From: a virus
UHGV virus genome: UHGV-0191815
DNA length: 53,795 nucleotides
Strand: one strand, 5' to 3'
In this document: positions 12,293 to 25,078 of the stretch, piece by piece
Layout of the letters: every line of letters starts with the position of its first letter
How positions within the stretch are numbered: the first letter of the stretch is position 1
Program-made: the position numbers and the translations under genes
Notes under the pieces: model-generated
Databases searched by the model: none
What the model was told of the DNA's origin: nothing
Seen by the model: the letters and a program-made list of their open reading frames with translations, nothing else

Positions 12293-13345
12293 TCAAAGAG
12301 CGCCTGCGCGTGTATCACGTAGCGTTTTTGGTTTAAGCAGGAAATCAAGTGTCGCAGTGAAGCCATCGCCGAAGTAAAAATCTGAAGCATTGTTTTTGAA
12401 CGTTTCAAAGTAGGCGACAAAGCCGTTAATGCTTTTGTCTTTCAGGTAGTCGGTGAACGCGTAGATCTTGCGTTCAAGATCCCGATCCAGTTCGGCAGGT
12501 GGCAACAGGCCATCAAACGTGCTGTTAAATGCCTCCACTACGTCGGCAGCGTTTGCAGTGGCTGACAGGTTGCGCCATTTTTCAGCATCAGCCAGATACC
12601 CATCAAATTTAGTTACCCGGCAAATGTTAACAGGCTTAGGAGTTCCGCCACGACTACGCCATTGCGTTAAAGCCCACTCAATCACTAATGTGATCTCATC
12701 CTCTGTGTATGCTTTACGTGTTTTTGTTTCTGTCAGTAGTTCTGTAAATGGCTTGGCATCACGACATTTGCATCCTGCCTTGTCGTTGTAGAAGGCCAGG
12801 CAACGCAACGCCGCTTCGTTTATGCCATCATGACTGACTGTTTTTTGTTCACTTTCGACAATACACGTAGTGTATATATCTTTTTCTCTTTCTTCTTCTT
12901 CTTCTAATTCTAATTCATGACCCTTTCCTGACCCGGTCATGACCCTATCATGACCTTTTTGTGTTGGATTGATTAACTTTTCTAATTTTAATTGTTCCTT
13001 CGCTGTGTTTATTGCTGCCCTATATGCGCTTTTAGAAGTCATTGATTGGTCCAGCCTTTTTAATAACTTTAAACAAGTTATGTGGCCCTGAGAACATTCA
13101 AACAAACCAATTTCGATGAAGTATTTCATCATTTCTTCTATACGTTTTTCAGTCGATCCGACGTTTCGCGCAATGATTCTCGCGTCATGTCGTAGGTCAA
13201 AAGTCAGATTATGCTGATCTACGTCATAAGTTATTAGTTCGAGGCAATACCAATAAAGCCCGTACCCTTCCAGGCCATAATCTAACAAAACGTTTTGAAG
13301 TTTTTCATCGCGGTTAGCATCGCTATCGTGCTTAAACCACTTCAT
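12293..13345 (-). CDS. Replication initiation protein (replisome organiser, DUF4373-like N-terminus)
   Basis: N-terminus MKWFKHDSDANRDEKLQNVLLDYGLEGYGLYWYCLELI is typical of phage replication initiators; RBS ggagg; iterons lie inside the gene. Confidence 0.7.
   Translation of the reverse strand: MKWFKHDSDANRDEKLQNVLLDYGLEGYGLYWYCLELITYDVDQHNLTFDLRHDARIIARNVGSTEKRIEEMMKYFIEIGLFECSQGHITCLKLLKRLDQSMTSKSAYRAAINTAKEQLKLEKLINPTQKGHDRVMTGSGKGHELELEEEEEREKDIYTTCIVESEQKTVSHDGINEAALRCLAFYNDKAGCKCRDAKPFTELLTETKTRKAYTEDEITLVIEWALTQWRSRGGTPKPVNICRVTKFDGYLADAEKWRNLSATANAADVVEAFNSTFDGLLPPAELDRDLERKIYAFTDYLKDKSINGFVAYFETFKNNASDFYFGDGFTATLDFLLKPKTLRDTRAGAL
12915..12955. repeat. Candidate origin of replication: four iterons (tcatgaccc / tcctgaccc) with exact 11-bp phasing, next to a polypyrimidine/AT tract
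   Basis: Iteron starts at 12915, 12926, 12937 and 12948; flanking tract tttttctctttcttcttcttcttctaattctaatt (12875-12912); sits in the linker region of the initiator gene, as in lambda O. Confidence 0.55.
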
Positions 13346-13348
13346 AGA

Positions 13349-13603
13349 TCATTCCTCCGGCAATGCAATATCATAAATTTCGCCGTATTCGTCAGCGCGT
13401 TTAATGAATCCTTTGCGGATTAATGAGTTTAATGCGTCAACAGTAGTATGCAGTGGCAGTTCGCAGACTTTTGCGATCTCTTCGCGTGAAGCATGTGCGC
13501 GGCCCTTGTTGTCTGCCTTTTCTGCAAACGCCATTAAGACAATTTTTTGAATCGGGCTGTTAAGTTTTACGTTCCATGCTTTGCTAATCATGTTCATACT
13601 CAT
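13349..13603 (-). CDS. Small HTH DNA-binding protein, first gene of the minus-strand early operon (Cro/CII-like position)
   Basis: MSMNMISKAWNVKLNSPIQKIVLMAFAEKADNKGRAHASREEIAKVCELPLHTTVDALNSLIRKGFI; RBS aggag 9 nt upstream of this ATG; divergent from the repressor gene. Confidence 0.55.
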   Translation of the reverse strand: MSMNMISKAWNVKLNSPIQKIVLMAFAEKADNKGRAHASREEIAKVCELPLHTTVDALNSLIRKGFIKRADEYGEIYDIALPEE

Positions 13604-13909
13604 TGTGTTTTCTCCTATGGTTAAAATGAACGCGCTGGCGGGCATCCCATTATCATTAGATAGCAGTGATTGACCGCTGAACAGATCCCGCCGTTGCGTG
13701 ATATTTGTTTTTCGCATTGCAGCGACACCTGGTTTTTAAAGAGCTTTCAAGGTATGTGCCATTTGTGCTTTCCATTATCTTTTTTCTTGCATCCTTGCAA
13801 CTATGGCCTTACCTTGTCAGCAAGTTTACAGAATGTTGTTAATAGATCAAGGATTGAAAAATACATTTTGTGACTTGCATCAAAAATTTTTAGGTTATAG
13901 GGTAGCGAT
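13604..13909. promoter_or_regulatory. Divergent immunity-region control region (candidate operators and promoters for the repressor gene and the minus-strand early operon)
   Basis: About 300 bp non-coding between divergent HTH genes; contains atacattttgtgact (13861-13875), the palindromes ttgca-tcct-tgcaa and cttg-tcag-caag, and the nut-like element. Confidence 0.5.
13713..13750 (-). promoter_or_regulatory. nut-like element on the minus-strand transcript (boxA-like GCTCTTTAAAAA + hairpin CGCTGCAATGCG)
   Basis: Reverse complement reads agCTCTTTAAAAAccaggtgtCGCTGCAATGCG; near-identical to the plus-strand element at 22441-22474. Confidence 0.45.
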
Positions 13910-14557
13910 ATGAAAACAAAATGGTATGACTTGGCAAAACAACTCATGCGGGCGCAAGGCATGAGCCAGGATTCATTGGCTGATCTTATGGGGATAACCA
14001 AAGGTGGCCTTTCTCACTGGTTGAACGGTCGCCGTGAGCCGAATCTTGAAGATATTACGCGGATCATGCGGGCGCTTGGGCGTCGGCAATTCACTGTTAC
14101 TCATGATGGTATGGTCATTGATGATTCTGTTTCTAACACGTTGCCGGGAGCGCCACCGCGTGATTTAGGTAGTTACCCGGTTGTTGACTGGAAGGACGCA
14201 GCAAACAATATGGAAGACATACGCCGATCAACATTACCACACGTTACGACTAGCGTTATTTGTTCAGATGATAGTTACTGGCTGGTTGCTAAAGGTGAAT
14301 CAATGAACGCGCCGCAAGGGTTAAGCATCCCGGCGGGTACTATGATACTTGTTGACCCGCACGCGCCAGCTATTGATGGCAAACTGGTTATAGCCCAACT
14401 GGAGGAAGGGCAGACACCGACGTTTAAACAGTTGATTACTGATGGAGGCAGAAAACTTTTGCGTTCACTTAATCCGTTGTATCCTCCGATCCCTATGAAT
14501 CCAGAATCAAAAATCATTGGCGTGGTTGTTGATGCGAAGATCGTAAACCTGCCATAA
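13910..14557 (+). CDS. CI-like prophage repressor (HTH_XRE N-terminal domain + LexA-like S24 peptidase C-terminal domain)
   Basis: HTH (SQDSLADLMGITKGGLSHWLNGRR); C-terminal S24-type region (...LVAKGESMNAPQGLSIPAGTMILVD...KLVIAQLEEGQTPTFKQL) with Ser and Lys catalytic context. Confidence 0.85.
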   Translation: MKTKWYDLAKQLMRAQGMSQDSLADLMGITKGGLSHWLNGRREPNLEDITRIMRALGRRQFTVTHDGMVIDDSVSNTLPGAPPRDLGSYPVVDWKDAANNMEDIRRSTLPHVTTSVICSDDSYWLVAKGESMNAPQGLSIPAGTMILVDPHAPAIDGKLVIAQLEEGQTPTFKQLITDGGRKLLRSLNPLYPPIPMNPESKIIGVVVDAKIVNLP

Positions 14558-14562
14558 ACATT

Positions 14563-14587
14563 AGCCGCCCGGTGGCGGCTTTTCTTT
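14563..14587 (+). terminator. Terminator after the repressor gene
   Basis: Stem agccgcc / ggcggct followed by tttcttt. Confidence 0.5.
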
Positions 14588-14679
14588 GCCATAAAAACGC
14601 CAAAACGTAAACAGAAAACCGTGTTTATTGTTTAAATATCAATGGCTTATAAATTTTATAAAAAAGTATACAAAATGTG

Positions 14680-14708
14680 TTGACTGGTGTTTTTACGTGG
14701 CGTATATT
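14680..14708 (+). promoter_or_regulatory. Sigma70-type promoter for the plus-strand early operon (PL-like), with an operator-like sequence abutting the -35
   Basis: -35 TTGACT (14680-14685), 17-bp spacer, -10 TATATT (14703-14708); gTATACAAAATGTG lies at 14666-14679. Confidence 0.6.
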
Positions 14709-14962
14709 GCGAATCAAAGGAAGGATGCAGGTAACAAAATCAACTTCCTGGCACTTTAAAAATCAGGCTTAACACCTTGTCAACCGTGGAGTAACTCCCC
14801 GATGGGGGACCGAAAGCGGCACTGATAACAAGGCGCATGGGGTGTTTAAAGCGTTACATCCCCCACGAAACCGCACGCAAGGCGACGAGTCAGCTTGCTT
14901 GGAGTGAGCAGGGTCACACCGGAAACGGCGATGATTGCGGGATTAGTTGAAAGATGTTAAGC

Positions 14963-15000
14963 CATTCTTTAACAATCTGGTCAGCCGCTGGAAGTGCGGC
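14963..15000 (+). promoter_or_regulatory. nut-like site: boxA-like (cattCTTTAACAAt) followed by hairpin GCCGC-tggaagt-GCGGC
   Basis: Lies in the roughly 340-nt leader between the promoter and the first early gene; boxA resembles the rrn/lambda boxA consensus. Confidence 0.45.
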
Positions 15001-15056
15001 AATTAACGAAGATGATTTTTTATTAAGTATCATCAAGGATATAAGGAGATCAGATC

Positions 15057-15347
15057 ATGGCAGTTACAATCATGTATGGCAAATGTGACAGTAAACTGAA
15101 TGCCAGGGAACGCAGAAGAATAAAAAGAGAAAACGAAAGAAAATCATCACCTGCAATTAATAAAACAGACAATGTGGATAAAGCTATTCGCTTTGCAAAC
15201 GAGGAAAGATGCAAACCAAATAGCATTAAAGAACATCGCAAAGGAGCAACAAAATGGTATGCGGAAAGTGAAAGCGGAAACTACTTCCACGCAACGCAAC
15301 CGCGCCAGCTTGGTGAAATCCCGCTAGACAAAGTTCGATACCATTAA
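15057..15347 (+). CDS. Putative N-like transcription antiterminator (arginine-rich motif protein)
   Basis: 96 aa; N-terminal arginine-rich motif NARERRRIKRENERK; first gene after the promoter and nut-like site; RBS aaggag. Confidence 0.45.
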   Translation: MAVTIMYGKCDSKLNARERRRIKRENERKSSPAINKTDNVDKAIRFANEERCKPNSIKEHRKGATKWYAESESGNYFHATQPRQLGEIPLDKVRYH

Positions 15348-15377
15348 TACATATCGTAAACAATATGAGGTGACGTT

Positions 15378-15500
15378 ATGGTTATTAAGGCGCTTCAATT
15401 CAAACTGGCGGTAGCGGAAATGCTTCACGATGCCGAAATGTGGAGCGCCGCGAATAAAGCCTTGTATGTAGTGTTAACAGCGAAGGAGATTAAAGAGTGA
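15378..15500 (+). CDS. Hypothetical small protein (40 aa)
   Basis: MVIKALQFKLAVAEMLHDAEMWSAANKALYVVLTAKEIKE; RBS gaggtga; stop overlaps the erf GTG start. Confidence 0.4.
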   Translation: MVIKALQFKLAVAEMLHDAEMWSAANKALYVVLTAKEIKE

Positions 15501-16138
15501 AAACAGAGTTACACAAAAAGCTGTGGACGATTCAACAAACGTTGAACGCTCCGAAAAATCAGCGTAATAATTTTGGTGGGTACAATTACAGATCGGCGGA
15601 GGATATTTTGGAGGCGGTTAAGCCACTTCTTCAAAATATAACGCTGACTGTTAGCGATGAAATCGTCCTGATCGGCAATCGCTATTATGTGAAAGCCACT
15701 GCCACACTAAGCGACGGAGAAGATGAAATTGCGGTAACTGCTTACGCCAGGGAAGAAGAAAGCAAGAAGGGAATGGATGCAAGCCAGCTAACTGGCGCGA
15801 CATCAAGTTATGCTCGTAAATACGCGTTGAACGGGTTGTTCTGTATTGACGATGCGCGAGATCCTGATACTGACGCATACGCTAAGCAGACAGGCCAGCA
15901 GCCTCGCCAACAGAAAAACCCACCAAAACAACAACCACAGCAGCAGAAAGCGCCGCCAAATCCTGATGAAGTGTTAGCGCGTTTCTGTGATGCGGCAGCG
16001 AAAGCGCCGGACGCTAACAAGTTGCGCGAGATATTCGGGAAGTGCTGGAAGCTACTTCCTAAAGATTCAGAGCAGCAACAGAAAGCCAAAGACGTTTATG
16101 ATATTCGCTTAAAAGAGATTAACGGGGAGATCGGTTAA
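15497..16138 (+). CDS. erf: Erf-family single-strand annealing recombinase
   Basis: Strong collinear similarity to P22 Erf: LNAPKNQ..FGGYNYRSAEDILEAVKPLL...DEIVLIGNRYYVKATAT..DGE...REEESKKGMDASQLTGATSSYARKYALNGLFCIDDA. Confidence 0.85.
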   Translation: MKTELHKKLWTIQQTLNAPKNQRNNFGGYNYRSAEDILEAVKPLLQNITLTVSDEIVLIGNRYYVKATATLSDGEDEIAVTAYAREEESKKGMDASQLTGATSSYARKYALNGLFCIDDARDPDTDAYAKQTGQQPRQQKNPPKQQPQQQKAPPNPDEVLARFCDAAAKAPDANKLREIFGKCWKLLPKDSEQQQKAKDVYDIRLKEINGEIG

Positions 16139-16608
16139 TGAGCTTAAATTCAATCACGCTGGGCGGTAATATCGGAAATGATATGGAAGTTCGCCACACG
16201 CAAAACGGTAAAGCTATTGGTAGCTTTCCGTTAGCTGTAACGAATGGCTACGGTGATAATAAAAGGACTATGTGGATCACTTGCCTGGTATTTGGCGAGC
16301 GCGCTGAAAAAATAGCGCCACATATTCGTAAGGGTGGAAAAATAGTGGTAAGCGGTCGCCTGGATGTTCGGCAATATGACCGGAACGACGGCACGAAGGG
16401 GACTGCGGTGGAAGTGGCTGTCAATGAGTTCGAATTCATGAACGTTAACCAGCAAGGCCAGCAGCAAGGCCAACAGCAGAAAGCGCCACCGCAGCAGCAG
16501 AGTAATAACGGTGGATATAAAGAACCGCCAATGGACTTCGACGATGATATTCCATTTGCTCCTGTAGGGTTACAATATGGCAAAAGCAGGATCTACGCGC
16601 TATCTTGA
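16138..16608 (+). CDS. ssb: Single-stranded DNA-binding protein
   Basis: OB-fold N-terminal region (ITLGGNIGNDMEVRHTQNGKAIGSFPLAVTNGYGD), Gln-rich linker, acidic C-terminal tail DFDDDIPF. Confidence 0.85.
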   Translation: MSLNSITLGGNIGNDMEVRHTQNGKAIGSFPLAVTNGYGDNKRTMWITCLVFGERAEKIAPHIRKGGKIVVSGRLDVRQYDRNDGTKGTAVEVAVNEFEFMNVNQQGQQQGQQQKAPPQQQSNNGGYKEPPMDFDDDIPFAPVGLQYGKSRIYALS

Positions 16609-16870
16609 TGCGCCGCCGATTCCGCGAACAAAAGAGCAAGTTCTCAAAGAAGCCCGTGATCAAATCGATCATGGGCTTTTTTTATGCGGCACGGCAGCGG
16701 AACGGATGGCAAAAAGATTTAGTGACCTGTACGCAAAGCAAATATGGTTCGACAACTGGCAGGCAAGTTTTTATCCACTACAAAGAAAACCGGATATGCA
16801 CTGGCCTGAATATGTCGATCCACGTATGCGCAAATATCGCGGGCGTATGGGCCAGGTCATTAACGATTAA
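16577..16870 (+). CDS. Hypothetical protein (start uncertain; 5' end overlaps ssb)
   Basis: ORF continuing the operon. Confidence 0.35.
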   Translation: MAKAGSTRYLDAPPIPRTKEQVLKEARDQIDHGLFLCGTAAERMAKRFSDLYAKQIWFDNWQASFYPLQRKPDMHWPEYVDPRMRKYRGRMGQVIND

Positions 16871-17109
16871 TGAGGTATCAAATCATGATCGAGGAAAAAG
16901 AAGTTGATAAGGAAATGCCTGACACAGCAGATGACTACGTTACTTTTGATGGTGGCCTGTATGAGTTCGATACGTCGGCTGGGTGGACTGATAAGTGGCC
17001 TCTTCCTACTCGCCAGGAACTAATGGCGCGCAAATCATTCGGCGAAGATGCGGAACGCCTTGCCAATAACAAGTGGCTTAACAAGTTTATTGCGGAGGGT
17101 GGAAAATGA
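16870..17109 (+). CDS. Hypothetical protein (79 aa)
   Basis: ORF with ATGA overlap to the next gene. Confidence 0.45.
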   Translation: MRYQIMIEEKEVDKEMPDTADDYVTFDGGLYEFDTSAGWTDKWPLPTRQELMARKSFGEDAERLANNKWLNKFIAEGGK

Positions 17110-17219
17110 ACCTTGCAAAAATTGCCGCACTGATTGCGGCCTTGTCTGTCGCTGTTGTGTATCTCAGCGTATCTCTTTATATCACGGTAGCGATCATTAA
17201 ACTTATTACTAACATGTGA
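17106..17219 (+). CDS. Small transmembrane peptide (37 aa)
   Basis: MNLAKIAALIAALSVAVVYLSVSLYITVAIIKLITNM; ATG overlaps the upstream stop. Confidence 0.4.
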   Translation: MNLAKIAALIAALSVAVVYLSVSLYITVAIIKLITNM

Positions 17220-17228
17220 GGCCAAATC

Positions 17229-17348
17229 ATGAAAGTCGGTAAGGATATTGTGACGGTCGCGTTTTGCATTATTTGTTTCCTGTTTGTGGTTGTGTTTTGC
17301 GGCGGATTTGCTGCGTTGGTTAGTCTTATTTTCAGGGGGCTGTTGTGA
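17229..17348 (+). CDS. Small transmembrane peptide (39 aa)
   Basis: MKVGKDIVTVAFCIICFLFVVVFCGGFAALVSLIFRGLL; stop overlaps the next start (TGATG). Confidence 0.4.
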   Translation: MKVGKDIVTVAFCIICFLFVVVFCGGFAALVSLIFRGLL

Positions 17349-17620
17349 TGAAAACATGGGATGCAAAGGCTGGTGATCTTGTCGTGTTGCCTGAATATCG
17401 TAATGACCCCGGCCTGGTTGTGCTTAACAGATCTGATTGCAATATGGCCCGTCCGATTCTGGTCAGATATTTGGATGGGGTGATTATAGTTCCAGTTTAC
17501 TTTGCTCGAATTGAGCTAATGGCCCGCAATGTTCGCGTTAAGCCGTTCCGGGCTTATGTTGAAGATCACTGGCGGAAATTGTTCGCCGGACTGAATGGGA
17601 TGTACGGCGTATGGCTATAA
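17348..17620 (+). CDS. Hypothetical protein (90 aa)
   Basis: ORF in translationally coupled series. Confidence 0.45.
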   Translation: MKTWDAKAGDLVVLPEYRNDPGLVVLNRSDCNMARPILVRYLDGVIIVPVYFARIELMARNVRVKPFRAYVEDHWRKLFAGLNGMYGVWL

Positions 17621-17802
17621 AATTGGTGAAGGTCAAACACCTGAAAGGCGGCGAAAAATTAATGTCATGGTGGGGGTATGAATTTATCGCCACTGCCTTT
17701 CATTTCGGACCAGGGGGCCAGGTGACAATTTTTGATGAAGATTTCGACGAGGTGGGGCAGTGGCATCTTGAGCAATATATCGAGGTGTTAGATGAAAATT
17801 AA
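17611..17802 (+). CDS. Hypothetical protein (63 aa)
   Basis: ORF in coupled series. Confidence 0.4.
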   Translation: MAIKLVKVKHLKGGEKLMSWWGYEFIATAFHFGPGGQVTIFDEDFDEVGQWHLEQYIEVLDEN

Positions 17803-18124
17803 ATTTCATAAAGCGTATGACGCTGAAAGTAACAAGCTGTCGCTATTTATTGAGTTCGAGCGCCGGATCGTGGTTGTTCCTTATGCGCGTCGCTTCAATG
17901 ATGCGGCAGGGCGGCGGCAGTTCGCGTTAGATATGCTGTTACGTGGCTGCGGCCTTATGCGCCCGCTATCTGATTTGAAACGGATGATGCCTGGATCGTT
18001 CGGTCAGATTGATGAAATTGAAATAAGCAAGGAAGAGCTAAACCGGGCGCGTGATTTGTTCCTTTCAAGCGAAGGAAACCCGTTTAATCCAGAAACTGAA
18101 ATGAGATGGCATCACCCACTATAA
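17792..18124 (+). CDS. Hypothetical protein (110 aa)
   Basis: ORF in coupled series. Confidence 0.45.
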   Translation: MKIKFHKAYDAESNKLSLFIEFERRIVVVPYARRFNDAAGRRQFALDMLLRGCGLMRPLSDLKRMMPGSFGQIDEIEISKEELNRARDLFLSSEGNPFNPETEMRWHHPL

Positions 18125-18137
18125 AAGGACAAATATC

Positions 18138-18758
18138 ATGAAAGACATCAAAACAGCTTATTCACTCGGCAGCGATGGCATGTTAATCACTCGTTACACT
18201 GAAGACGCAAGTTATCATGAAGTTGAAACGAAGGATTATCACGAAGTGATTAAAGATATGGAATCTGGCGCGTATGACGCAGATTTGAACCTGGCGTTGC
18301 AGGTTGCTGATATTGTTATGGATGCGTCGATGCGCGATTATGTGTCTTTAGACGCTGAAGAAAAAACTGCTATAGCTCGTTATGTCTTCTGCCTCACTTT
18401 CGTGAAACGCATGGAAGAGGAATATGGTCGCGTGCCAGTGCCGGAAGATCTTGATCCTCTGGCGTTCGGTAGTGCTGTTATCTTCCCGTTAGATGAAAAC
18501 CGCATGGTTAGCGCTGCACTGTATTCTGTGCGCGGTGTGATGAAGAAAATATTTGAGGCCAAAGCGCTACAGAAGTGCATTGATGAAGGGCACAACGAAG
18601 AAGACGTAAGAGCAATCATGCCGATGTTTTATGGCGAAATGGTTGATATTAACATGCGTGCGAATGATTTAGGCGTGCAGGCGGTAATAAGCGTGCTTAA
18701 TGAAGCGCGTAAAATGGCACAGCCAATGCCTGAACCTGAAAAGCGCGTACTCCATTAA
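18138..18758 (+). CDS. Hypothetical protein (206 aa)
   Basis: Long ORF with RBS; no recognisable motif. Confidence 0.55.
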   Translation: MKDIKTAYSLGSDGMLITRYTEDASYHEVETKDYHEVIKDMESGAYDADLNLALQVADIVMDASMRDYVSLDAEEKTAIARYVFCLTFVKRMEEEYGRVPVPEDLDPLAFGSAVIFPLDENRMVSAALYSVRGVMKKIFEAKALQKCIDEGHNEEDVRAIMPMFYGEMVDINMRANDLGVQAVISVLNEARKMAQPMPEPEKRVLH

Positions 18759-18857
18759 TATTGTGATTGCGATTACATAACTATACGTTTTGTGTTGTGA
18801 TCGCAAATCCGTTTTGTAAACTGAAATCGAAAGGTTTACAGCACGGAGGGAAACAAG

Positions 18858-19076
18858 ATGGCACGCGAATTGATGCTTTATTGCGTAGAAGGTGGCGTGG
18901 GACATGATTCCTACGTCGCCGGGAAAAGCTATCCAGCAGATGAAGTGCTTTCTAATATGCACTTCCGGGAAAATGAACAACAGGTGTCTGTATGGAAGCG
19001 GTGCGCTGATGGCGTTGAGATAGTCAGCCTTGAAAGATATTTGGGCAAATTTGACTACGCATTGTTCGAGGCTTAA
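18858..19076 (+). CDS. Hypothetical protein (72 aa)
   Basis: ORF with RBS ggaggg. Confidence 0.45.
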   Translation: MARELMLYCVEGGVGHDSYVAGKSYPADEVLSNMHFRENEQQVSVWKRCADGVEIVSLERYLGKFDYALFEA

Positions 19077-19167
19077 CTATGGACGATTCATTGCTATTTA
19101 TGTGCATTTGCTGGGGTTTTATTGCCTTATGCCTGTTTGTCAGATGGTTTATTGAATATCACATGAG

Positions 19168-19365
19168 GTGATCTATGAAAAGGTTGGCGAATACATGATA
19201 CCGGATAACGCTAAATTAGCCGGAATCGGTCAATTTGGTTGTTATTACTATAACTGCGTAGGTGATATTTATCAGGTCAGTATTGTTGGTGGTGTACAAC
19301 ATTTTCGTCTTATGCACTTTGAATTAAGCGCACTTAAAAAGGCGGTGTTAATGTATGAAGTTTAA
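19168..19365 (+). CDS. Hypothetical protein (start uncertain)
   Basis: ORF; possible GTG or internal ATG start. Confidence 0.35.
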   Translation: MIYEKVGEYMIPDNAKLAGIGQFGCYYYNCVGDIYQVSIVGGVQHFRLMHFELSALKKAVLMYEV

Positions 19366-19558
19366 ACAGTACAAAGACTGGAAGATTCCAGAAGAAGCAA
19401 CAAAGGCAGCGCCCGGAATTTTTTCGGGCGTTTATTTTTATATGGAAGGTAAATGGTATTTCGGCAGCAGGCCGGATCATTATTATCAAGAATTATGCAA
19501 GTCTCACACATGGGATATTAAGGAACGCGTGCAAGGTGGTGTAATAGACGAGGTTTAA
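19355..19558 (+). CDS. Hypothetical protein (67 aa)
   Basis: ORF in coupled series. Confidence 0.4.
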   Translation: MKFKQYKDWKIPEEATKAAPGIFSGVYFYMEGKWYFGSRPDHYYQELCKSHTWDIKERVQGGVIDEV

Positions 19559-19559
19559 A

Positions 19560-19796
19560 ATGGTTAAGTGTTTTTTAAACTGGTTAAAGACGTGGCTTTT
19601 GTGTACGCTTCGTGTTTTTTTGGTGTTCGGTTGCGCTATCGTCGTATTTACGCTGGGTGTGATGTTTGTTACATGGTCAGTTCCTGAATTTAACGACATT
19701 GATGGTATTCTTTTTACGGTGCGTGTTTTATTGGCTGTTAGCGCATTCATTGGTTTTTGCTGGACTGTAGCGCCTGATTGGGAAGATGAATGGTGA
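19560..19796 (+). CDS. Small integral membrane protein (78 aa, 2-3 predicted TM segments)
   Basis: Hydrophobic stretches LLCTLRVFLVFGCAIVVFTLGVMFV and LLAVSAFIGFCWTV. Confidence 0.45.
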   Translation: MVKCFLNWLKTWLLCTLRVFLVFGCAIVVFTLGVMFVTWSVPEFNDIDGILFTVRVLLAVSAFIGFCWTVAPDWEDEW

Positions 19797-20034
19797 TCCT
19801 ATGGCTTTGTTTAATATGTCAGAGCCGCAATTCAACGCCGTAAAAACTGCCGCGCGTGCGGCGCTTTCTGCCTGCAAAGCAGAGGCGGAAAGAAACGGCT
19901 ACAGCGATAAAGCTACGCGGCTGATATTAGAAAAGCATTATCGCAAGGTCGCCCCGCTAATCAGCATTGAGCGTTTTGTGTGGTTGGTTGGGTATCTCAA
20001 TAATAGATGGGGGACTGACCAGGATTATTTTTAG
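19786..20034 (+). CDS. Hypothetical protein (about 80 aa)
   Basis: ORF in coupled series. Confidence 0.4.
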   Translation: MNGDPMALFNMSEPQFNAVKTAARAALSACKAEAERNGYSDKATRLILEKHYRKVAPLISIERFVWLVGYLNNRWGTDQDYF

Positions 20035-20042
20035 TGGGGGTA

Positions 20043-20585
20043 ATGATGAAAAATGATTTCGGAGGCAGCAACACGCCAAAGGAAATTAAAGACCTGTGGC
20101 AGACGCCAAAACCAGTATTCAGGGGAATGGATCGTGAGTTCGAATTCGTCGCTGACGTTGCGGCAAATAAGGAAAATGCGCTAGTTCCGCGATATATAAC
20201 CGAAGAAATGGACACGTTGCATTATCCGTGGGGAGCGGTGGCAATGCCTGGTGATTATGTGTGGATGAATCCGCCATACTCAAATCCGGGTCCATTTGTT
20301 GATAAAGCTGCGCTCGAACATCAACGGAATCACATCGGTTGCGTGATGTTGTTGCCCGCTGACATTTCTGTTAGCTGGTTCATGAACGGCGTTGAGACGG
20401 CAAACGAGTGCCGATTGGTAACGCGCGGGCGGCTGGCGTTTATTAATGCTGCGACTGGTAAGCCAGTAAGCGGAAACAACAAAGGCAGCTTGTTTTTGAT
20501 CTGGCATCCACGGTGCAAACATGAATGCATTTTTACTCACATAACACGTAAAGAGCTATATGCAAGAGGTGCAGATAATGACTAA
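20043..20585 (+). CDS. Phage-type DNA N6-adenine methyltransferase (Dam family)
   Basis: Catalytic NPPY motif (YVWMNPPYS) and overall layout of small phage Dam methyltransferases; RBS ggggg. Confidence 0.75.
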   Translation: MMKNDFGGSNTPKEIKDLWQTPKPVFRGMDREFEFVADVAANKENALVPRYITEEMDTLHYPWGAVAMPGDYVWMNPPYSNPGPFVDKAALEHQRNHIGCVMLLPADISVSWFMNGVETANECRLVTRGRLAFINAATGKPVSGNNKGSLFLIWHPRCKHECIFTHITRKELYARGADND

Positions 20586-21075
20586 TGCAGCAGATTTACT
20601 ACGACTTGCAGCGGAAACAATAGAGCAAAGGGGCAAACAAAACGGATACGACAGAAAGCAGGAAAAATCAGCGCCTAAAATAGCCACTATATACAACGCT
20701 AAGAAGGGAGCAAATTTAACCCCACTTGATGTATGGGATCTGATGATTTGTCTTAAGGAGGCGCGTTTAGAGGCCATTTTAGCCAATGGCAGCGATCCTA
20801 CTGACACTTTAGTTGACCTAATCAGCTACAGCGCACTAAAAGCTGAGCAAATATTGAATAATCGGGATGAAGAGTTAAAGAAAAATAAGTTCACTGAAGA
20901 CAATATTAATGATGGAATAATAAATGACGCAGCAATAACAAGCTGTAAGGGATTGCCACCTTCAATGCTTAACCCTCAATGCGGTTGTATTTCAACTCGG
21001 CTTGATTTTAATTTCAAAAGATCTGAGGCTATTCGCGATAAGAGGTATGACCCAAATGAAGAAGGTGACAATTGA
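20578..21075 (+). CDS. Hypothetical protein (165 aa)
   Basis: ORF between the two methyltransferase genes. Confidence 0.45.
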   Translation: MTNAADLLRLAAETIEQRGKQNGYDRKQEKSAPKIATIYNAKKGANLTPLDVWDLMICLKEARLEAILANGSDPTDTLVDLISYSALKAEQILNNRDEELKKNKFTEDNINDGIINDAAITSCKGLPPSMLNPQCGCISTRLDFNFKRSEAIRDKRYDPNEEGDN

Positions 21076-21559
21076 CAGGTTATTGGCCTGCGTTTATGTC
21101 GCCGTTTTCGTGATCATCAACCTCATTGTTAACCATTGCGGCCCGTGTGTAATTCCGATCACTACGGTAGCCGCAGTGTGTGTAAATATGATGATCCGCG
21201 ACTTTTTGTTATATGACGGCGGTATTAAGTGGTCGGCTACAACATGCGCAGCCGCTGGCGCAATCACGGTAATGATAAATTACGATGCGGGAATGGTGGC
21301 AATTGCGTCATTTGTCGCGGTTGTTTCCGGTGCGCTTATTTCTGGCTGTGTTTACCGTGTTTTGCCTGGTGATTTCGATTCTAAGCGCTGGCCTGCAAAT
21401 ATAGCTTCAGCCATCGGGGATGCGCTGATTTTTCCCACGCTGTCGTTCATGGCGTTTATGCCGGAAATATCAGCCATGCAATTCATCTCAAAAATGGCAG
21501 CGGTGACAGTGATCACTATCATCATGCGCCGCTATTTCACGTTTGAGGGAAGAAAATGA
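21056..21559 (+). CDS. Integral membrane protein (about 4 TM segments)
   Basis: MKKVTIDRLLACVYVAVFVIINLIV...; multiple hydrophobic helices; RBS aagagg. Confidence 0.5.
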   Translation: MKKVTIDRLLACVYVAVFVIINLIVNHCGPCVIPITTVAAVCVNMMIRDFLLYDGGIKWSATTCAAAGAITVMINYDAGMVAIASFVAVVSGALISGCVYRVLPGDFDSKRWPANIASAIGDALIFPTLSFMAFMPEISAMQFISKMAAVTVITIIMRRYFTFEGRK

Positions 21560-22344
21560 GAAAGGCTAAACACTGGTTAAATAATTGGCTAAGAAACTGG
21601 GTTGTGTGGTCGCTGTACGACGGCAGCGGGTACGCCGTTAAAGACTGGGCGGAAGCGGGATATAAGTGCTATTGCTTCAACTATGACGGCGCAAATCACG
21701 GCGATTATGAAGGCGTTAAAATCATTCACCCGAATATTGAATACGTTAACGTATGGATTGATAGTCACTTCCTGGTGATGTTCTCGCCTGAATTGTCTGT
21801 TTATCCAGAGCCTGATATTATCCTGGGCTTCCCGCCGTGCGACGATCTCGCCGTGTCTGGCGCTCGCTGGTTCGCTGATAAACGGAAAAAAGATCCTGAC
21901 TTCCAGGTGAAGGCGGCTAATAGCGCAAAACTGGTAGAAAAGCTGGCGAATATGCACAACGTGCCGTGGATGGTGGAAAATCCGGTGGGAGCACTGTCAA
22001 CGCTATGGCGTAAACCGGATTTTATCTTCAATCCTTGCGCTTACGGTGGCTACCTTCCGGAAGATGACAAACATCCTGCCTTCCCTGAATACATAGCCGC
22101 CCGCGACGCATACACGAAGAAAACTTGTATTTGGTGCGGCAACGGATTTAAACAGCCGCTGTTTCGGCCTGTACCAATGCCGGACGAATTGGAAGACAGT
22201 AAACAGCACGCTAAGTTAGGAGGAAAGTCAAAGCGCACTAAGATGATCCGCTCACTAACGCCGCGAGGCTTTGCCCGTGCTGTATTCCTGGCTAACGACA
22301 GGGCCATCAATCGTAATACGCTCAACAGCGTTTTACCGGACTGA
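21556..22344 (+). CDS. Putative DNA (cytosine-5) methyltransferase
   Basis: Motif I-like LYDGSGY, motif IV-like GFPPCDDLAVSG, motif VI-like ENPVGAL. Confidence 0.55.
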   Translation: MRKAKHWLNNWLRNWVVWSLYDGSGYAVKDWAEAGYKCYCFNYDGANHGDYEGVKIIHPNIEYVNVWIDSHFLVMFSPELSVYPEPDIILGFPPCDDLAVSGARWFADKRKKDPDFQVKAANSAKLVEKLANMHNVPWMVENPVGALSTLWRKPDFIFNPCAYGGYLPEDDKHPAFPEYIAARDAYTKKTCIWCGNGFKQPLFRPVPMPDELEDSKQHAKLGGKSKRTKMIRSLTPRGFARAVFLANDRAINRNTLNSVLPD

Positions 22345-22366
22345 AATTTACAAAATGGCGTCATTG

Positions 22367-22382
22367 TGTGATTTGTGTCACA
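22367..22382. promoter_or_regulatory. Perfect palindrome TGTGA-tttgtg-TCACA (CRP-consensus-like, or a phage operator)
   Basis: Read directly; lies just upstream of a candidate promoter. Confidence 0.4.
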
Positions 22383-22398
22383 TAATGGCGCTTTTCTT

Positions 22399-22427
22399 CT
22401 TGTTTACGTGTATCCATTTTGTATACT
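22399..22427 (+). promoter_or_regulatory. Candidate internal promoter (-35 cttgtt, -10 TATACT)
   Basis: -10 TATACT at 22422-22427 with a 17-bp spacer; overlaps ccattttgtatac, a copy of the recurring motif. Confidence 0.35.
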
Positions 22428-22440
22428 GCAAACAAAATAA

Positions 22441-22474
22441 ACGCTCTTTAAAAATCCGGTGGCGCTGCAATGCG
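22441..22474 (+). promoter_or_regulatory. nut-like element: boxA CGCTCTTTAAAAA + hairpin CGCTGCAATGCG
   Basis: boxA matches lambda nut boxA (CGCTCTTA) closely; the whole element is near-identical to the minus-strand copy at 13713-13750. Confidence 0.45.
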
Positions 22475-22502
22475 TAAAAGTCACATGAAAGGAGTGTGAG
22501 CT

Positions 22503-22679
22503 ATGTCTTTCGATTATTACCAATGGCATGACGACTATGAACGAGAAAGCGTCATGCGTGCGATGTGCAACATGTGCGATACGAAGAAAGGAGAATGTAA
22601 CGAGTGCAACGAGTGTTTAGATCATTGGCTAAAGGCCGGACGCGACGAAAGGCGGAGCGAAACAGAAAATCAAAAATAA
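22503..22679 (+). CDS. Small Cys-rich protein (58 aa), possible zinc ribbon
   Basis: MSFDYYQWHDDYERESVMRAMCNMCDTKKGECNECNECLDHWLKAGRDERRSETENQK; under 60 aa so absent from the ORF track. Confidence 0.4.
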   Translation: MSFDYYQWHDDYERESVMRAMCNMCDTKKGECNECNECLDHWLKAGRDERRSETENQK

Positions 22680-22693
22680 TAGGGGTGATTTTT

Positions 22694-23305
22694 ATGCAAA
22701 ACCCTAAGAAACCAATCAGAAGGCGATGCAAATGCTGTGGCGCTTTCTTCGAACCTAAATACCACAATCAAACGTGGTGCAGTGATGACTGCCTGGATCA
22801 ACTTAAGTTCGAACAGCTATGCCGTGACCGTGAAAACGCAATGAAGGCGATTGAACGGAAAAAGCGCCGCGACAGCCAGCGGGAAGAGCGCAACCGGAAG
22901 CGGAAGGAGAAGCAGTTACACCCGCGAAGCTACTGGATACACCAAGCACAAACTGTATTTAACGCATACATCCGCGAACGTGATGCGGGGCAACCGTGTA
23001 TATCTTGCGGTACTTACTACGGTGATCAATGCGGTTGGGATGCCGGACATTACAGGACAGTAGCGGCAGCAGGACATCTTCGATTCAATGAAGATAACGT
23101 GCATCGTCAATGCAAACACTGCAATCAGAGACTGGACGGCAACATAGGAGGGTATCGCCCAGCACTGATTAGAAAAATTGGCCTTGCCAGGGTGGAAGTG
23201 CTGGAGAACAACAACGAAGTTCACAAATGGACTATCGAAGAATGTAAGGAGATCGCAAAAGTTTATCAGGCTAAGTTAAACGCCTTAAGGAGAAAGGCAG
23301 CATGA
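22694..23305 (+). CDS. ninG: NinG (Rap) recombination endonuclease
   Basis: Collinear similarity to lambda NinG: RRRCK.C...F......WCS..C...PRSYWI.QAQ...NA.IRERD...PCISCGT....QCGWDAGHYRT.AAA..LRFNE.N.H.QC..CNQ; start at ATG 22694 with RBS aggggtga. Confidence 0.85.
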   Translation: MQNPKKPIRRRCKCCGAFFEPKYHNQTWCSDDCLDQLKFEQLCRDRENAMKAIERKKRRDSQREERNRKRKEKQLHPRSYWIHQAQTVFNAYIRERDAGQPCISCGTYYGDQCGWDAGHYRTVAAAGHLRFNEDNVHRQCKHCNQRLDGNIGGYRPALIRKIGLARVEVLENNNEVHKWTIEECKEIAKVYQAKLNALRRKAA

Positions 23306-23709
23306 ACGAGTATACATTTAGCCTACCATACCCGCCATCGAACAACCGCTATTACCGACATTCACGCGGTATTCACTATATCAGCAAGGTTGGGAAAGAA
23401 TACAGGGAGCAAGTAAAAGACATCATCGAGCTATTAAATTTAAATATTAACCTGCCTTGCCGACTGGCAATAGCCATTTATGCCGCGCCGCCGGATAACC
23501 GGATCAGAGATCTGGATAATATCCCCAAATGCCTTTTTGATAGCCTTACTTATGCCGGATTCTGGAAGGATGACGGACAAATCGACGCAATAAAAATTGT
23601 TCGCTGCCAGAAGATAAAAAGCGGGCGCTTGTTTATTAAGGTACGCGAGCGCGGCGACCTGCTACCTGACATTGACGAATACGCGACTAATATGTGGGGT
23701 GACAAATGA
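23302..23709 (+). CDS. rusA: RusA Holliday junction resolvase
   Basis: LPYPPSNNRYYRHSRG....S..G..YR...........IAIY..PPDNRIRDLDNIPKCLFDSLTYAGFWKDDGQI matches E. coli / lambdoid RusA. Confidence 0.85.
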   Translation: MNEYTFSLPYPPSNNRYYRHSRGIHYISKVGKEYREQVKDIIELLNLNINLPCRLAIAIYAAPPDNRIRDLDNIPKCLFDSLTYAGFWKDDGQIDAIKIVRCQKIKSGRLFIKVRERGDLLPDIDEYATNMWGDK

Positions 23710-23888
23710 AAAACGAAATTAAAGATCTGCAAATAGATATTCAGCGCGACGAGCATGATTTAGAAACTGTGCGACAAATACAGGCTTTCCACATGCGAGA
23801 ATTGCTTGCGCTGAAAGAGCTTGAAAGAAAGCTAGTGCAGGCAATATCTGATCGCAAAAGACTGGTTGCGCGTTACTGGGGGAAATAA
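23706..23888 (+). CDS. Hypothetical protein (60 aa)
   Basis: ORF in coupled series. Confidence 0.4.
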   Translation: MKNEIKDLQIDIQRDEHDLETVRQIQAFHMRELLALKELERKLVQAISDRKRLVARYWGK

Positions 23889-24616
23889 TGAATCTGGAAT
23901 CAATTCTTAAATTCCACTTCCCAAAATCGCCGCGTTTATCAGATGAAAGCCGTGGTACGTCCCCGGATGCGCTTAATACTACGGATGCACTAACTGCCGC
24001 AGGTATGGCGCAATCGCGCGTAGAGCTTGGTTACAGTGCTTTTTTGGGGAAGATGGAACTATCACAAGCCGAAAAACATAAGGCCGTAGTTTTGCTTATA
24101 GAGCGCTTAAAGGCTATGGCAAAAGATTATGAATACGTTATTGAACTGGACGAGGCAAAACGCAATGATCTCATTATTCTTGTTGCCGTTTTCGCGTTTC
24201 GGGATTATTGCCAGAGTGCAGCGACCGAAAAAGTTTGCCCTAAGTGCGGCGGCAACGGGCTTTTACCAAATCCATATTGCGAATACACATCGACAGTTTG
24301 TTCGCGGTGCGGCGGCAAAGGCTACGTTAAAAACCATTGCCAACGTTGCAAGGGGCGCGGCGAAATACCGGATAAAGCAGCCAGTGAAGCGGCGGAAATG
24401 CCAGTGTTCAAAACGTGCCAGCACTGCGGCGGGCGCGGGTACTCGCGTTTCCCTGTAGATCTTGTCCGGCAGGCTGTTAATCAGCTTGTATTTCCGGTAA
24501 GCCGATCAACATGGTGGAAGAAATACCGCGCTTTCTATGAAGACGCCATTGCTGAGTTGTTCAAAGAAGAGGCGCGGGCTGACAACGAAATAAAACGAGT
24601 GACGCGGGGTGAATAA
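23888..24616 (+). CDS. DnaJ-type zinc-finger protein; possible late-gene regulator (Q-like position)
   Basis: Four CxxCxGxG repeats (CPKCGGNG, CSRCGGKG, CQRCKGRG, CQHCGGRG); located after ninG-rusA where lambdoid phages carry Q; function not established from sequence. Confidence 0.4.
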   Translation: MNLESILKFHFPKSPRLSDESRGTSPDALNTTDALTAAGMAQSRVELGYSAFLGKMELSQAEKHKAVVLLIERLKAMAKDYEYVIELDEAKRNDLIILVAVFAFRDYCQSAATEKVCPKCGGNGLLPNPYCEYTSTVCSRCGGKGYVKNHCQRCKGRGEIPDKAASEAAEMPVFKTCQHCGGRGYSRFPVDLVRQAVNQLVFPVSRSTWWKKYRAFYEDAIAELFKEEARADNEIKRVTRGE

Positions 24617-24816
24617 TGGATAAGCTGGAAATAAACGATCAGTTTGCTGTTATCTTGTTCGAAGATAAAACTGGCGGCGCATGGTGTAAGAAAGTAACTG
24701 GCGCGGAAGCGCGTTTAATATTGGGTATGGCAAGCGCGTTAAATGAAGGCGAATTGCCAGCCATCCCTATTAAGCCTGTCAAAATTTACAAGCGTGGTGA
24801 CGATAATGAAGCCTAA
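24616..24816 (+). CDS. Hypothetical protein (66 aa)
   Basis: ATG overlaps the upstream stop; first gene of the small-gene block. Confidence 0.45.
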   Translation: MDKLEINDQFAVILFEDKTGGAWCKKVTGAEARLILGMASALNEGELPAIPIKPVKIYKRGDDNEA

Positions 24817-25078
24817 ATTAAAAGAACATATTTACCGCCAGTTGATTAACGAGCTTGCGGATACAGCCCGATATTACGCAGGAACACAACAGCTACGCGG
24901 GCGGCTATCTTCGGTTGTTAACCGCTATATTGATGCCGGATGTCATCGCAAAGGTGAAATCACGATGGACGAGGCCATCAAGCGCCGGACGGCTGAATGG
25001 TCAGTGAGTAACACCGGATTAACCGGATACATTGAAGGCTATAACGACTGTTTACAGGATCATAGCGATGGCAAGTAA
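24806..25078 (+). CDS. Hypothetical protein (90 aa)
   Basis: ORF in coupled series. Confidence 0.45.
   Translation: MKPKLKEHIYRQLINELADTARYYAGTQQLRGRLSSVVNRYIDAGCHRKGEITMDEAIKRRTAEWSVSNTGLTGYIEGYNDCLQDHSDGK

Follow-up and report, generated by a model that had tools for sequence, protein, structure and literature searches.

Both strands of the 53,795-nt viral genome UHGV-0191815, whose whole length is referred to as the window, carry a boxA-like sequence followed by a small hairpin. Do these elements serve N-dependent antitermination, or does the repeat have another meaning? The initial annotation had read them as N-type nut sites for three transcription units, with an arginine-rich ORF nearby as the N protein. 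This proposal is supported by the published mEp021 system and by our comparative data on boxA and the hairpins. We therefore consider the three elements, with a probability of about 0.9, to be N-utilisation (nut) sites that a temperate phage of the mEp021 type carries in its early transcripts. Features and coordinates are collected in Table 1.

Across the immunity region (13300-15400), phages mEp515, mEp021 and mEp010 are 90-93% identical to the window and share its gene order, and around nutR2 their identity is 86-88%. Matches to the window were also found in 35 of 5426 complete E. coli genomes, each at 80-90% identity. Judged by its sequence, the window is a diverged temperate E. coli phage of the mEp021 (mEpimmI) group. 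Downstream of nutR2, Pfam recognised NinG (5.1e-68) and RusA (8.6e-15) in addition to the Q-type protein. In the immunity region, a -10-like TATAGG was read about 7 nt ahead of the repressor ATG (13880-13912, plus strand), which suggests that the repressor mRNA may be leaderless, like that of lambda cI from PRM.

Table 1. Features of the window around the three nut sites.
Feature	Position	Strand	Details
HTH protein and replication genes	left of nutL	-	
nutL	13712..13745	-	boxA (A)GCTCTTTAAAAA 13745-13733; spacer CCAGGTG 13732-13726; boxB UCGC-U-GCAA-U-GCGA 13725-13712
Candidate nutL promoter	13774..13800	-	TTGCAA-15-GATAAT; weak, predicted
LexA/CI-type repressor gene	13910-14557	+	Peptidase_S24 and HTH_3
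PL-like early promoter	14680..14708	+	TTGACT-17-TATATT; leader, nutR1 and N-like gene downstream
Structured leader block	14751..14963	+	about 213 nt, between PL-like promoter and nutR1
nutR1	14964..15000	+	boxA ATTCTTTAACAA 14964-14975; spacer TCTGGTCA 14976-14983; boxB GCCGC-UGGAAGU-GCGGC 14984-15000
N-like antiterminator gene	15057..15347	+	Gp17 orthologue, 96 aa; arginine-rich motif N15-A-R-E-R-R-R-I-K-R24
ERF, SSB and methylase genes	after the N-like gene	+	
Strong terminator-like hairpin	19408..19432	+	11 pairs, then TATTTTTATA; inside the early operon, between nutR1 and nutR2
Intrinsic-terminator-like hairpin	22357..22392	+	16 pairs and a T-run; TERM_4 in the mEp021 record
Candidate nutR2 promoter	22400..22427	+	TTGTTT-16-TATACT; predicted
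nutR2	22442..22475	+	boxA CGCTCTTTAAAAA 22442-22454; spacer TCCGGTG 22455-22461; boxB GCGC-U-GCAA-U-GCGU 22462-22475
NinF-like ORF	22503-22679	+	followed by NinG, RusA and Q antiterminator
Q-type late antiterminator gene	23888..24616	+	Pfam Antiterm PF03589, 1.8e-31; downstream of nutR2

The sequences that the initial annotation had quoted for the three sites were all found where it had placed them, although the plus-strand string is 34 nt long and not 35. The diverged third copy it had given at 14963-15000 is real, with boxA and hairpin occupying 14964-15000. When the whole window was searched with GCTCTTTAAAAA-N8-CGCTGCAATGCG at up to three mismatches, matches appeared only at 22443-22474 (plus strand) and 13713-13744 (minus strand), and 100 dinucleotide-preserving shuffles gave none. 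The likeness of these two copies forms a 40-nt island of 88% identity (13708-13747 and 22440-22479), outside of which neither the upstream promoter regions nor the downstream sequences align. The 12-mer CGCTGCAATGCG alone is not enriched at two mismatches (10 found, 8.3 expected). Hence, the significance resides in the composite element. As to their surroundings, nutL is opposite in strand to the repressor gene and about 165 nt upstream of it, nutR1 ends 57 nt ahead of the N-like gene, and nutR2 sits between a methyltransferase-like ORF and the NinF-like ORF.

In all three sites boxB starts at a fixed distance of 7-8 nt 3' of boxA, and the minimum free energy (MFE) hairpins form as proposed. 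The CGC/GCG core of the two similar copies is lengthened by G22462.U22475 in nutR2 and by U13725-A13712 in nutL, giving a stem of 4 bp where 3 bp had been described. The 6-nt UGCAAU loop does differ from the loops of lambda and P22, as had been stated, but a GCAA tetraloop with U.U on its flanks is the better description. Predicted folding energies are -10.1 kcal/mol for the nutR1 hairpin and -5.6 and -5.2 kcal/mol for those of nutR2 and nutL (4-bp stems, 6-nt loops). These values are not significantly better than those of shuffled sequences (z from -0.25 to -1.9), a comparison that is uninformative because the hairpins are so short. The boxA cores read CGCUCUUUA in nutR2, AGCUCUUUA in nutL and AUUCUUUAA in nutR1 of the window, with GCUCUUUAA or GCUCAUUAA in nutR1 of relatives, so the window sites all carry a boxA related to CGCUCUU(U)A. 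A search of the whole window against Rfam 15 at gathering score returned no match, and at E <= 10 the region 13600-15100 gave chance-level matches only.

An antitermination system of this layout has been described before. According to PMC11893012 (citing Valencia-Toxqui 2023), the N-like protein Gp17 of the mEp021 group acts on nutL, nutR1 and nutR2, early antitermination in mEp021 is attributed to Gp17, and the group is Nus-dependent. The same paper locates nutL ahead of the repressor gene, nutR1 ahead of gp17 and nutR2 past the cytosine methyltransferase gene. It further describes nutL and nutR2 as the most similar pair, nutR1 as more variable, and an adenine-rich stretch of the boxB loop as conserved. 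When the gene map of the window was compared with the mEp021 annotation and with these positions, its three sites proved syntenic with the published nutL, nutR1 and nutR2. The mEp021 sites, read from its own sequence (locus L001 of our set) as GCTCTTTAAAAATCCGGTGTCGCTGCGAAGCGA for nutL, GCTCATTAACAATCTGGTCAGCCGCTGGAAGTGCGGC for nutR1 and GCTCTTTAAAAATCCGGCAGCGCTGAAATGCGT for nutR2, align base for base with those of the window and show 2-5 differences each. The two phages share the three positions, the layout of boxA, spacer and hairpin, an orthologous N-like protein and its arginine positions. They differ in the loops, which are GCAA flanked by U.U at nutL and nutR2 of the window, whereas in mEp021 the nutL loop is GCGA with a closing U-A pair and the nutR2 loop is GAAA. 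They also differ in the nutR1 boxA (ATTCTTTAACAA in the window, GCTCATTAACAA in mEp021) and in a few spacer bases.

The N-like protein of the window is 92% identical to mEp021 Gp17. R17, R19, R20 and R24, given as invariant in PMC11893012, occupy the published positions, and R21 is also present. The arginine-rich motif NARERRRIKRENERK is conserved in all relatives. The three elements are thus the already described nut system of the mEp021 group in the form of a new sequence variant, and are not new. As a discovery they carry little weight, since a Gp17-dependent system with three nut sites has already been described and tested in mEp021. What possibly goes beyond the literature consulted is a block of leader RNA and a putative promoter for nutR2, both treated further below.

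Selection on the sites was assessed in 43 IMG/VR loci, which were gathered through the N-like protein and not through the motif. The three intergenic regions were extracted from them by BLAST with the flanks of the window. Wherever the region was included, the site was present (nutL 42/42, nutR1 44/44, nutR2 43/43). The boxA at nutL and nutR2 is almost invariant although the flanks differ by 10-20%, reading GCTCTTTAAAAA in every locus that has the region, with the single exception of ACTCTTTAAAAA. At nutR1 the boxA is GCTCATTAACAA in 28 loci, GCTCTTTAACAA in 8 and ATTCTTTAACAA in 3 including the window, besides a few other variants.

The hairpins show a different kind of conservation. Most relatives have UCGCU-GCGA-AGCGA at nutL, a 5-bp stem with a GNRA tetraloop (GUGA in one of them), while the window and L002 carry a GCAA loop and U.U in place of the closing U-A pair. 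At nutR2 all relatives have NCGC-U-GAAA-U-GCGN', and GCAA occurs only in the window. The identical 12-mer at two sites is hence peculiar to the window, the loops of relatives being GCGA in nutL but GAAA in nutR2. For the outer pair N-N', nutL shows U-A, and nutR2 shows G.U, A-U or C-G with one U.U exception; over the 16 distinct nutL/nutR2 variants this pair takes these four standard types. Paired cells make up 86% at the proposed register, compared with 29-58% at any slid register, and the observed covariation score was reached by none of 500 shuffles, a result that rests on few independent events within a narrow family (N identity 75-97%). The three core pairs of nutL and nutR2 never vary and say nothing for or against the structure. 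In L044, the most divergent relative (N identity 75%), the nutR1 stem has changed from GCCGC/GCGGC to GCUAC/GUAGC, which amounts to two double compensatory changes, and its loop is UGAAAU. Across the relatives the loops are always GNRA (GAAA, GCGA, GUGA, GCAA) or GGAAG, and the G.U pairs can form only on the transcribed strand.

Thus, the sites are non-random, all relatives share their positions and their architecture, and the sequence comparison shows the hairpins to be under selection for pairing and loop type. Searches with the N protein for more distant relatives gave no confirmed relative in genome contigs and only close ones (83-95% identity) in metagenomes, which limits the power of the covariation analysis. 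For specialists, this natural variation could be of use: GAAA, GCGA, GUGA, GCAA and GGAAG loops are tolerated by one arginine-rich motif, the loop-closing position tolerates U-A or U.U, and one lineage, L044, has altered both the arginine-rich region and the nutR1 hairpin. In L003-L005 and L044 the gene after nutR2 is not NinF-like but another one, starting ATGAACGATGACA, and the outer boxB pair is C-G. This different downstream gene places nutR2 at a mosaic recombination junction.

How closely do the sites resemble the classical ones? In lambda, boxA is CGCUCUUA, boxA and spacer of nutL read CGCUCUUAAAAAUUAA and boxB of nutR reads AGCCCUGAAAAAGGGC; in the rrn operons, boxA is UGCUCUUUA, followed by the spacer ACAAUUUA (PMC2724277). 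The nutR2 boxA of the window (CGCUCUUUAAAAAUCC) and the nutR1 of relatives with a short leader (UGCUCUUUAACAAUCU) match the reference boxA, so that the likeness to lambda nut and rrn boxA noticed at the outset holds against the reference sequences in PMC2724277. The start of nutR2, CGCUCUUUAAAAAU, equals that of lambda nutL, CGCUCUUAAAAAUU, save for an extra U. With this extra U, the boxA of the window has the rrn-consensus form, unlike that of lambda; N activity is enhanced by a boxA of consensus form (PMC2724277).

Lambda nut (boxB GCCCUGAARAAGGGC, spacer 8-9 nt) and the window sites share the order and spacing of boxA, spacer and boxB, an A-rich purine loop starting with G, and, for the window by prediction, a place in the leader of an early operon. 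Meanwhile, the boxB geometry is not the same. Lambda has a pentaloop, GAAAA or GAAGA, that mimics the GNRA fold (Legault et al. 1998, as cited in PMC3177189) and tops a stem of 5 bp, whereas the window has stems of 4-5 bp with a GNRA tetraloop plus U.U or U-A, and a 7-nt UGGAAGU loop at nutR1. A GNRA-like pentaloop (GAAAA, GAAGA, GACAA) on a 5-bp stem was not found at the three sites, whose loops belong to the same chemistry class in another geometry. In addition, the window has three nut sites against two in lambda, and its group is given a non-lambdoid genome organisation, unlike lambda, in PMC11893012. Both lambda N and the window protein have an N-terminal arginine-rich motif, but the latter is not detectably homologous to lambda N at the Pfam threshold: PF25694 (N_peptide) scored 16.9 bits (E = 0.009), below its gathering score of 27.9. 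The system would be lambda N/nut-like in its working, but these data do not establish that its protein is a homologue of lambda N.

The likeness to rrn leaders allows a second reading, in which the elements are N-independent sites where boxA alone loads Nus factors against Rho-dependent termination and the hairpins are incidental. The boxA core of the rrn leader antiterminator (boxB-boxA-boxC), UGCUCUUUAACAA, is indeed nearly identical to that of the window, with the rrn consensus CUUUA and not the weaker lambda form, and in short-leader relatives the nutR1 boxA and spacer match rrn UGCUCUUUAACAAUUUA at 15 of 17 nt. However, boxB is listed ahead of boxA in rrn, where it is reported not to be needed for antitermination (PMC2724277) and where no phage N protein takes part. 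The window hairpin stands 3' of boxA at a fixed, lambda-like distance and bears the marks of selection on pairing and loop type described above. A conserved arginine-rich N-like protein is encoded beside nutR1, and its orthologue Gp17 is the protein reported to be responsible in mEp021 (PMC11893012). We regard an rrn-type function as quite improbable.

Another reading would take the 12-mer, or all of the 32-mer, for an operator in double-stranded DNA, bound by the phage repressor or a Cro-like protein. The elements do lie near early promoters, CGCTGCAATGCG is an imperfect palindrome, and the repressor operators are not defined in the literature consulted. Yet the 12-mer is not conserved as DNA: the nutL of relatives has CGCTGCGAAGCG or CGCTGTGAAGCG in its place, their nutR2 has CGCTGAAATGCG, and the nutR1 stem is unrelated to it in sequence. 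Base pairing and a GNRA loop are what persist. The outer G.U pair of most nutR2 copies would be a C/A mismatch on the opposite strand. Moreover, the sites are predicted to lie inside transcripts, downstream of the -10 elements, and a dyad conserved as double-stranded DNA and overlapping promoter hexamers was not seen at them. A better operator candidate is TATACAAAATG, which recurs on the promoters themselves. A hairpin whose sequence drifts while pairing and loop type are kept agrees with a structure in RNA and speaks against an operator in DNA, a role that the initial annotation had named as the finding that would overturn its proposal. We consider such an operator very unlikely. That the repeat is a functionless product of chance or a recombination relic at a shared module boundary, as the mosaic junction at nutR2 (another downstream gene in L003 and L044) might hint, can practically be dismissed in view of the empty shuffles, the near-invariant boxA between diverged flanks and the compensatory changes in the hairpins.

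As nut sites, each of the three elements would be transcribed into early RNA. Host NusB/NusE would assemble on its boxA, a single-stranded GCUCUUUAA-type sequence of rrn consensus form, and the N-like protein would attach by its arginine-rich N-terminus to the boxB hairpin, whose loop is of GNRA type. The complex would then travel with RNA polymerase and allow read-through of terminators. In this way the replication operon on the minus strand would be served by nutL, the genes for N, recombination and methylases on the plus strand by nutR1, and the ninF-ninG-rusA-Q segment by nutR2. Nus factor binding, the promoter assignments of nutL and nutR2, and which terminators are overcome are steps that we infer.

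The promoters that would feed these units differ in strength. The PL-like promoter is the best sigma-70 match in 13000-25000 (10/12), and both of its hexamers are conserved across the relatives. Promoters had also been placed just upstream of the nutL and nutR2 copies, and candidates were found there; that of nutR2 and the exact one of nutL stand as predictions. For nutL, relatives depart from the -10 at its final T (GATAAG, GATAAC), which makes the assignment uncertain. For nutR2, TTGT and TATACT are invariant in 35 distinct relatives with a variable spacer between them, and the consensus scan did not flag this candidate, whose -35 matches at only 3 of 6 positions.

The intrinsic-terminator-like hairpin at 22357-22392 stands directly upstream of the candidate nutR2 promoter and 50 nt from nutR2. 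Its loop is variable, and the order of terminator, promoter and nut site is conserved in all relatives. A nut site 50 nt past a terminator would be most useful if transcription restarts there, and a separate nutR2 promoter is plausible from these comparisons. A likely third promoter would explain the need for a third nut site in the mEp021 group. No strong intrinsic terminator was predicted between nutR2 and Q, so the need for nutR2 is not evident from the sequence of that segment. Several terminator-like hairpins lie on the minus strand downstream of nutL, and t3 and t4 are given as predicted terminators in PMC11893012.

Inverted copies of TATACAAAATG flank the 22357-22392 hairpin. A related pattern was seen with the 11-mer TWTACAAAATG, which at up to one mismatch occurs 22 times in the window against 4.05 expected. 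Its copies include 14667, 22347, 22415(-), 13825, 43575/43604(-), 46830/46859(-), 1709/1740(-) and 48565/48602(-), among others. It abuts the PL-like -35, overlaps the candidate nutR2 -10, precedes terminator t4 and, in the late region, forms inverted pairs at a distance of about 29 nt. PL (in relatives) and the candidate nutR2 promoter have a longer form, GTATACAAAATGGAT, in common. The 11-mer may serve the repressor, or some other regulator, as an operator, and some of its copies may be just translation-start contexts (AAAATG).

Between the PL-like promoter and nutR1 lies a conserved block that is predicted to be a closed domain, with the closing helix GGCUUAACA (14766-14774) / UGUUAAGCC (14955-14963). 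It opens, 43 nt past the -10 of the promoter, with the boxA-like GCACTTTAAAAATCAGG (14751-14767). This sequence, which had escaped the initial annotation, is the closest in the window to the boxA and spacer of nutL and nutR2: their 17-mer consensus, at up to two mismatches, occurs at only three places in the window (nutL, nutR2 and 14751), with 0.09 expected. The block is present in 34 of the 43 IMG/VR relatives and in 31 of 35 E. coli prophages, and its identity to the window is 95.5-99.5%, compared with 80-92% for the flanks of the same relatives. In the nine relatives from which it is absent, the nutR1 boxA is canonical (GCTCTTTAACAA or GCTCTTTAATAA), whereas it is usually altered to GCTCATT or ATTCTTT where the block is present. 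Inside the block, the L044/L062/L063 lineage shows three double changes in the hairpin at 14894-14912 that leave it paired. The block matched no Rfam family, contains no gene in RefSeq, and does not figure in the nut description of the literature consulted. From its conservation and predicted folding, we conclude that the block is probably a conserved structured leader RNA.

Two other explanations of this region were considered and rejected. The mEp021 record annotates a 37-aa ORF (gp16) inside the block, but as the cause of the conservation it is contradicted by the L044/L062/L063 changes, which are non-synonymous in its frame and compensatory in the hairpin; PGAP, too, annotates the region without a gene. 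Neither is GCACTTTAAAAATCAGG the true nutR1 boxA, for the nine relatives that lack it keep boxA and boxB at 14964-15000, and no hairpin follows it at nut spacing.

It should be added that the leader block could tune nutR1 function or N expression, for example if it folds out and so brings the upstream boxA-like box next to boxB. We hold a wider proposal only tentatively, and think it rather doubtful as a whole: that nutR2 has its own promoter, so that the phage would have three independently initiated, possibly repressor-controlled, N-antiterminated units, and that the leader block is in addition an undescribed cis-acting RNA.

A further feature of the N leader concerns the nutR1 spacer, of which UCUGGUC (14976-14982) is complementary to GAUCAGA (15047-15053, plus strand), located after the Shine-Dalgarno sequence and ahead of the AUG of the N-like gene. 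Both the MFE and the consensus folds contain this pairing, which is conserved in most relatives, L044 not among them. It recalls the structure in the lambda N leader by which nutL and the translation of N are coupled.
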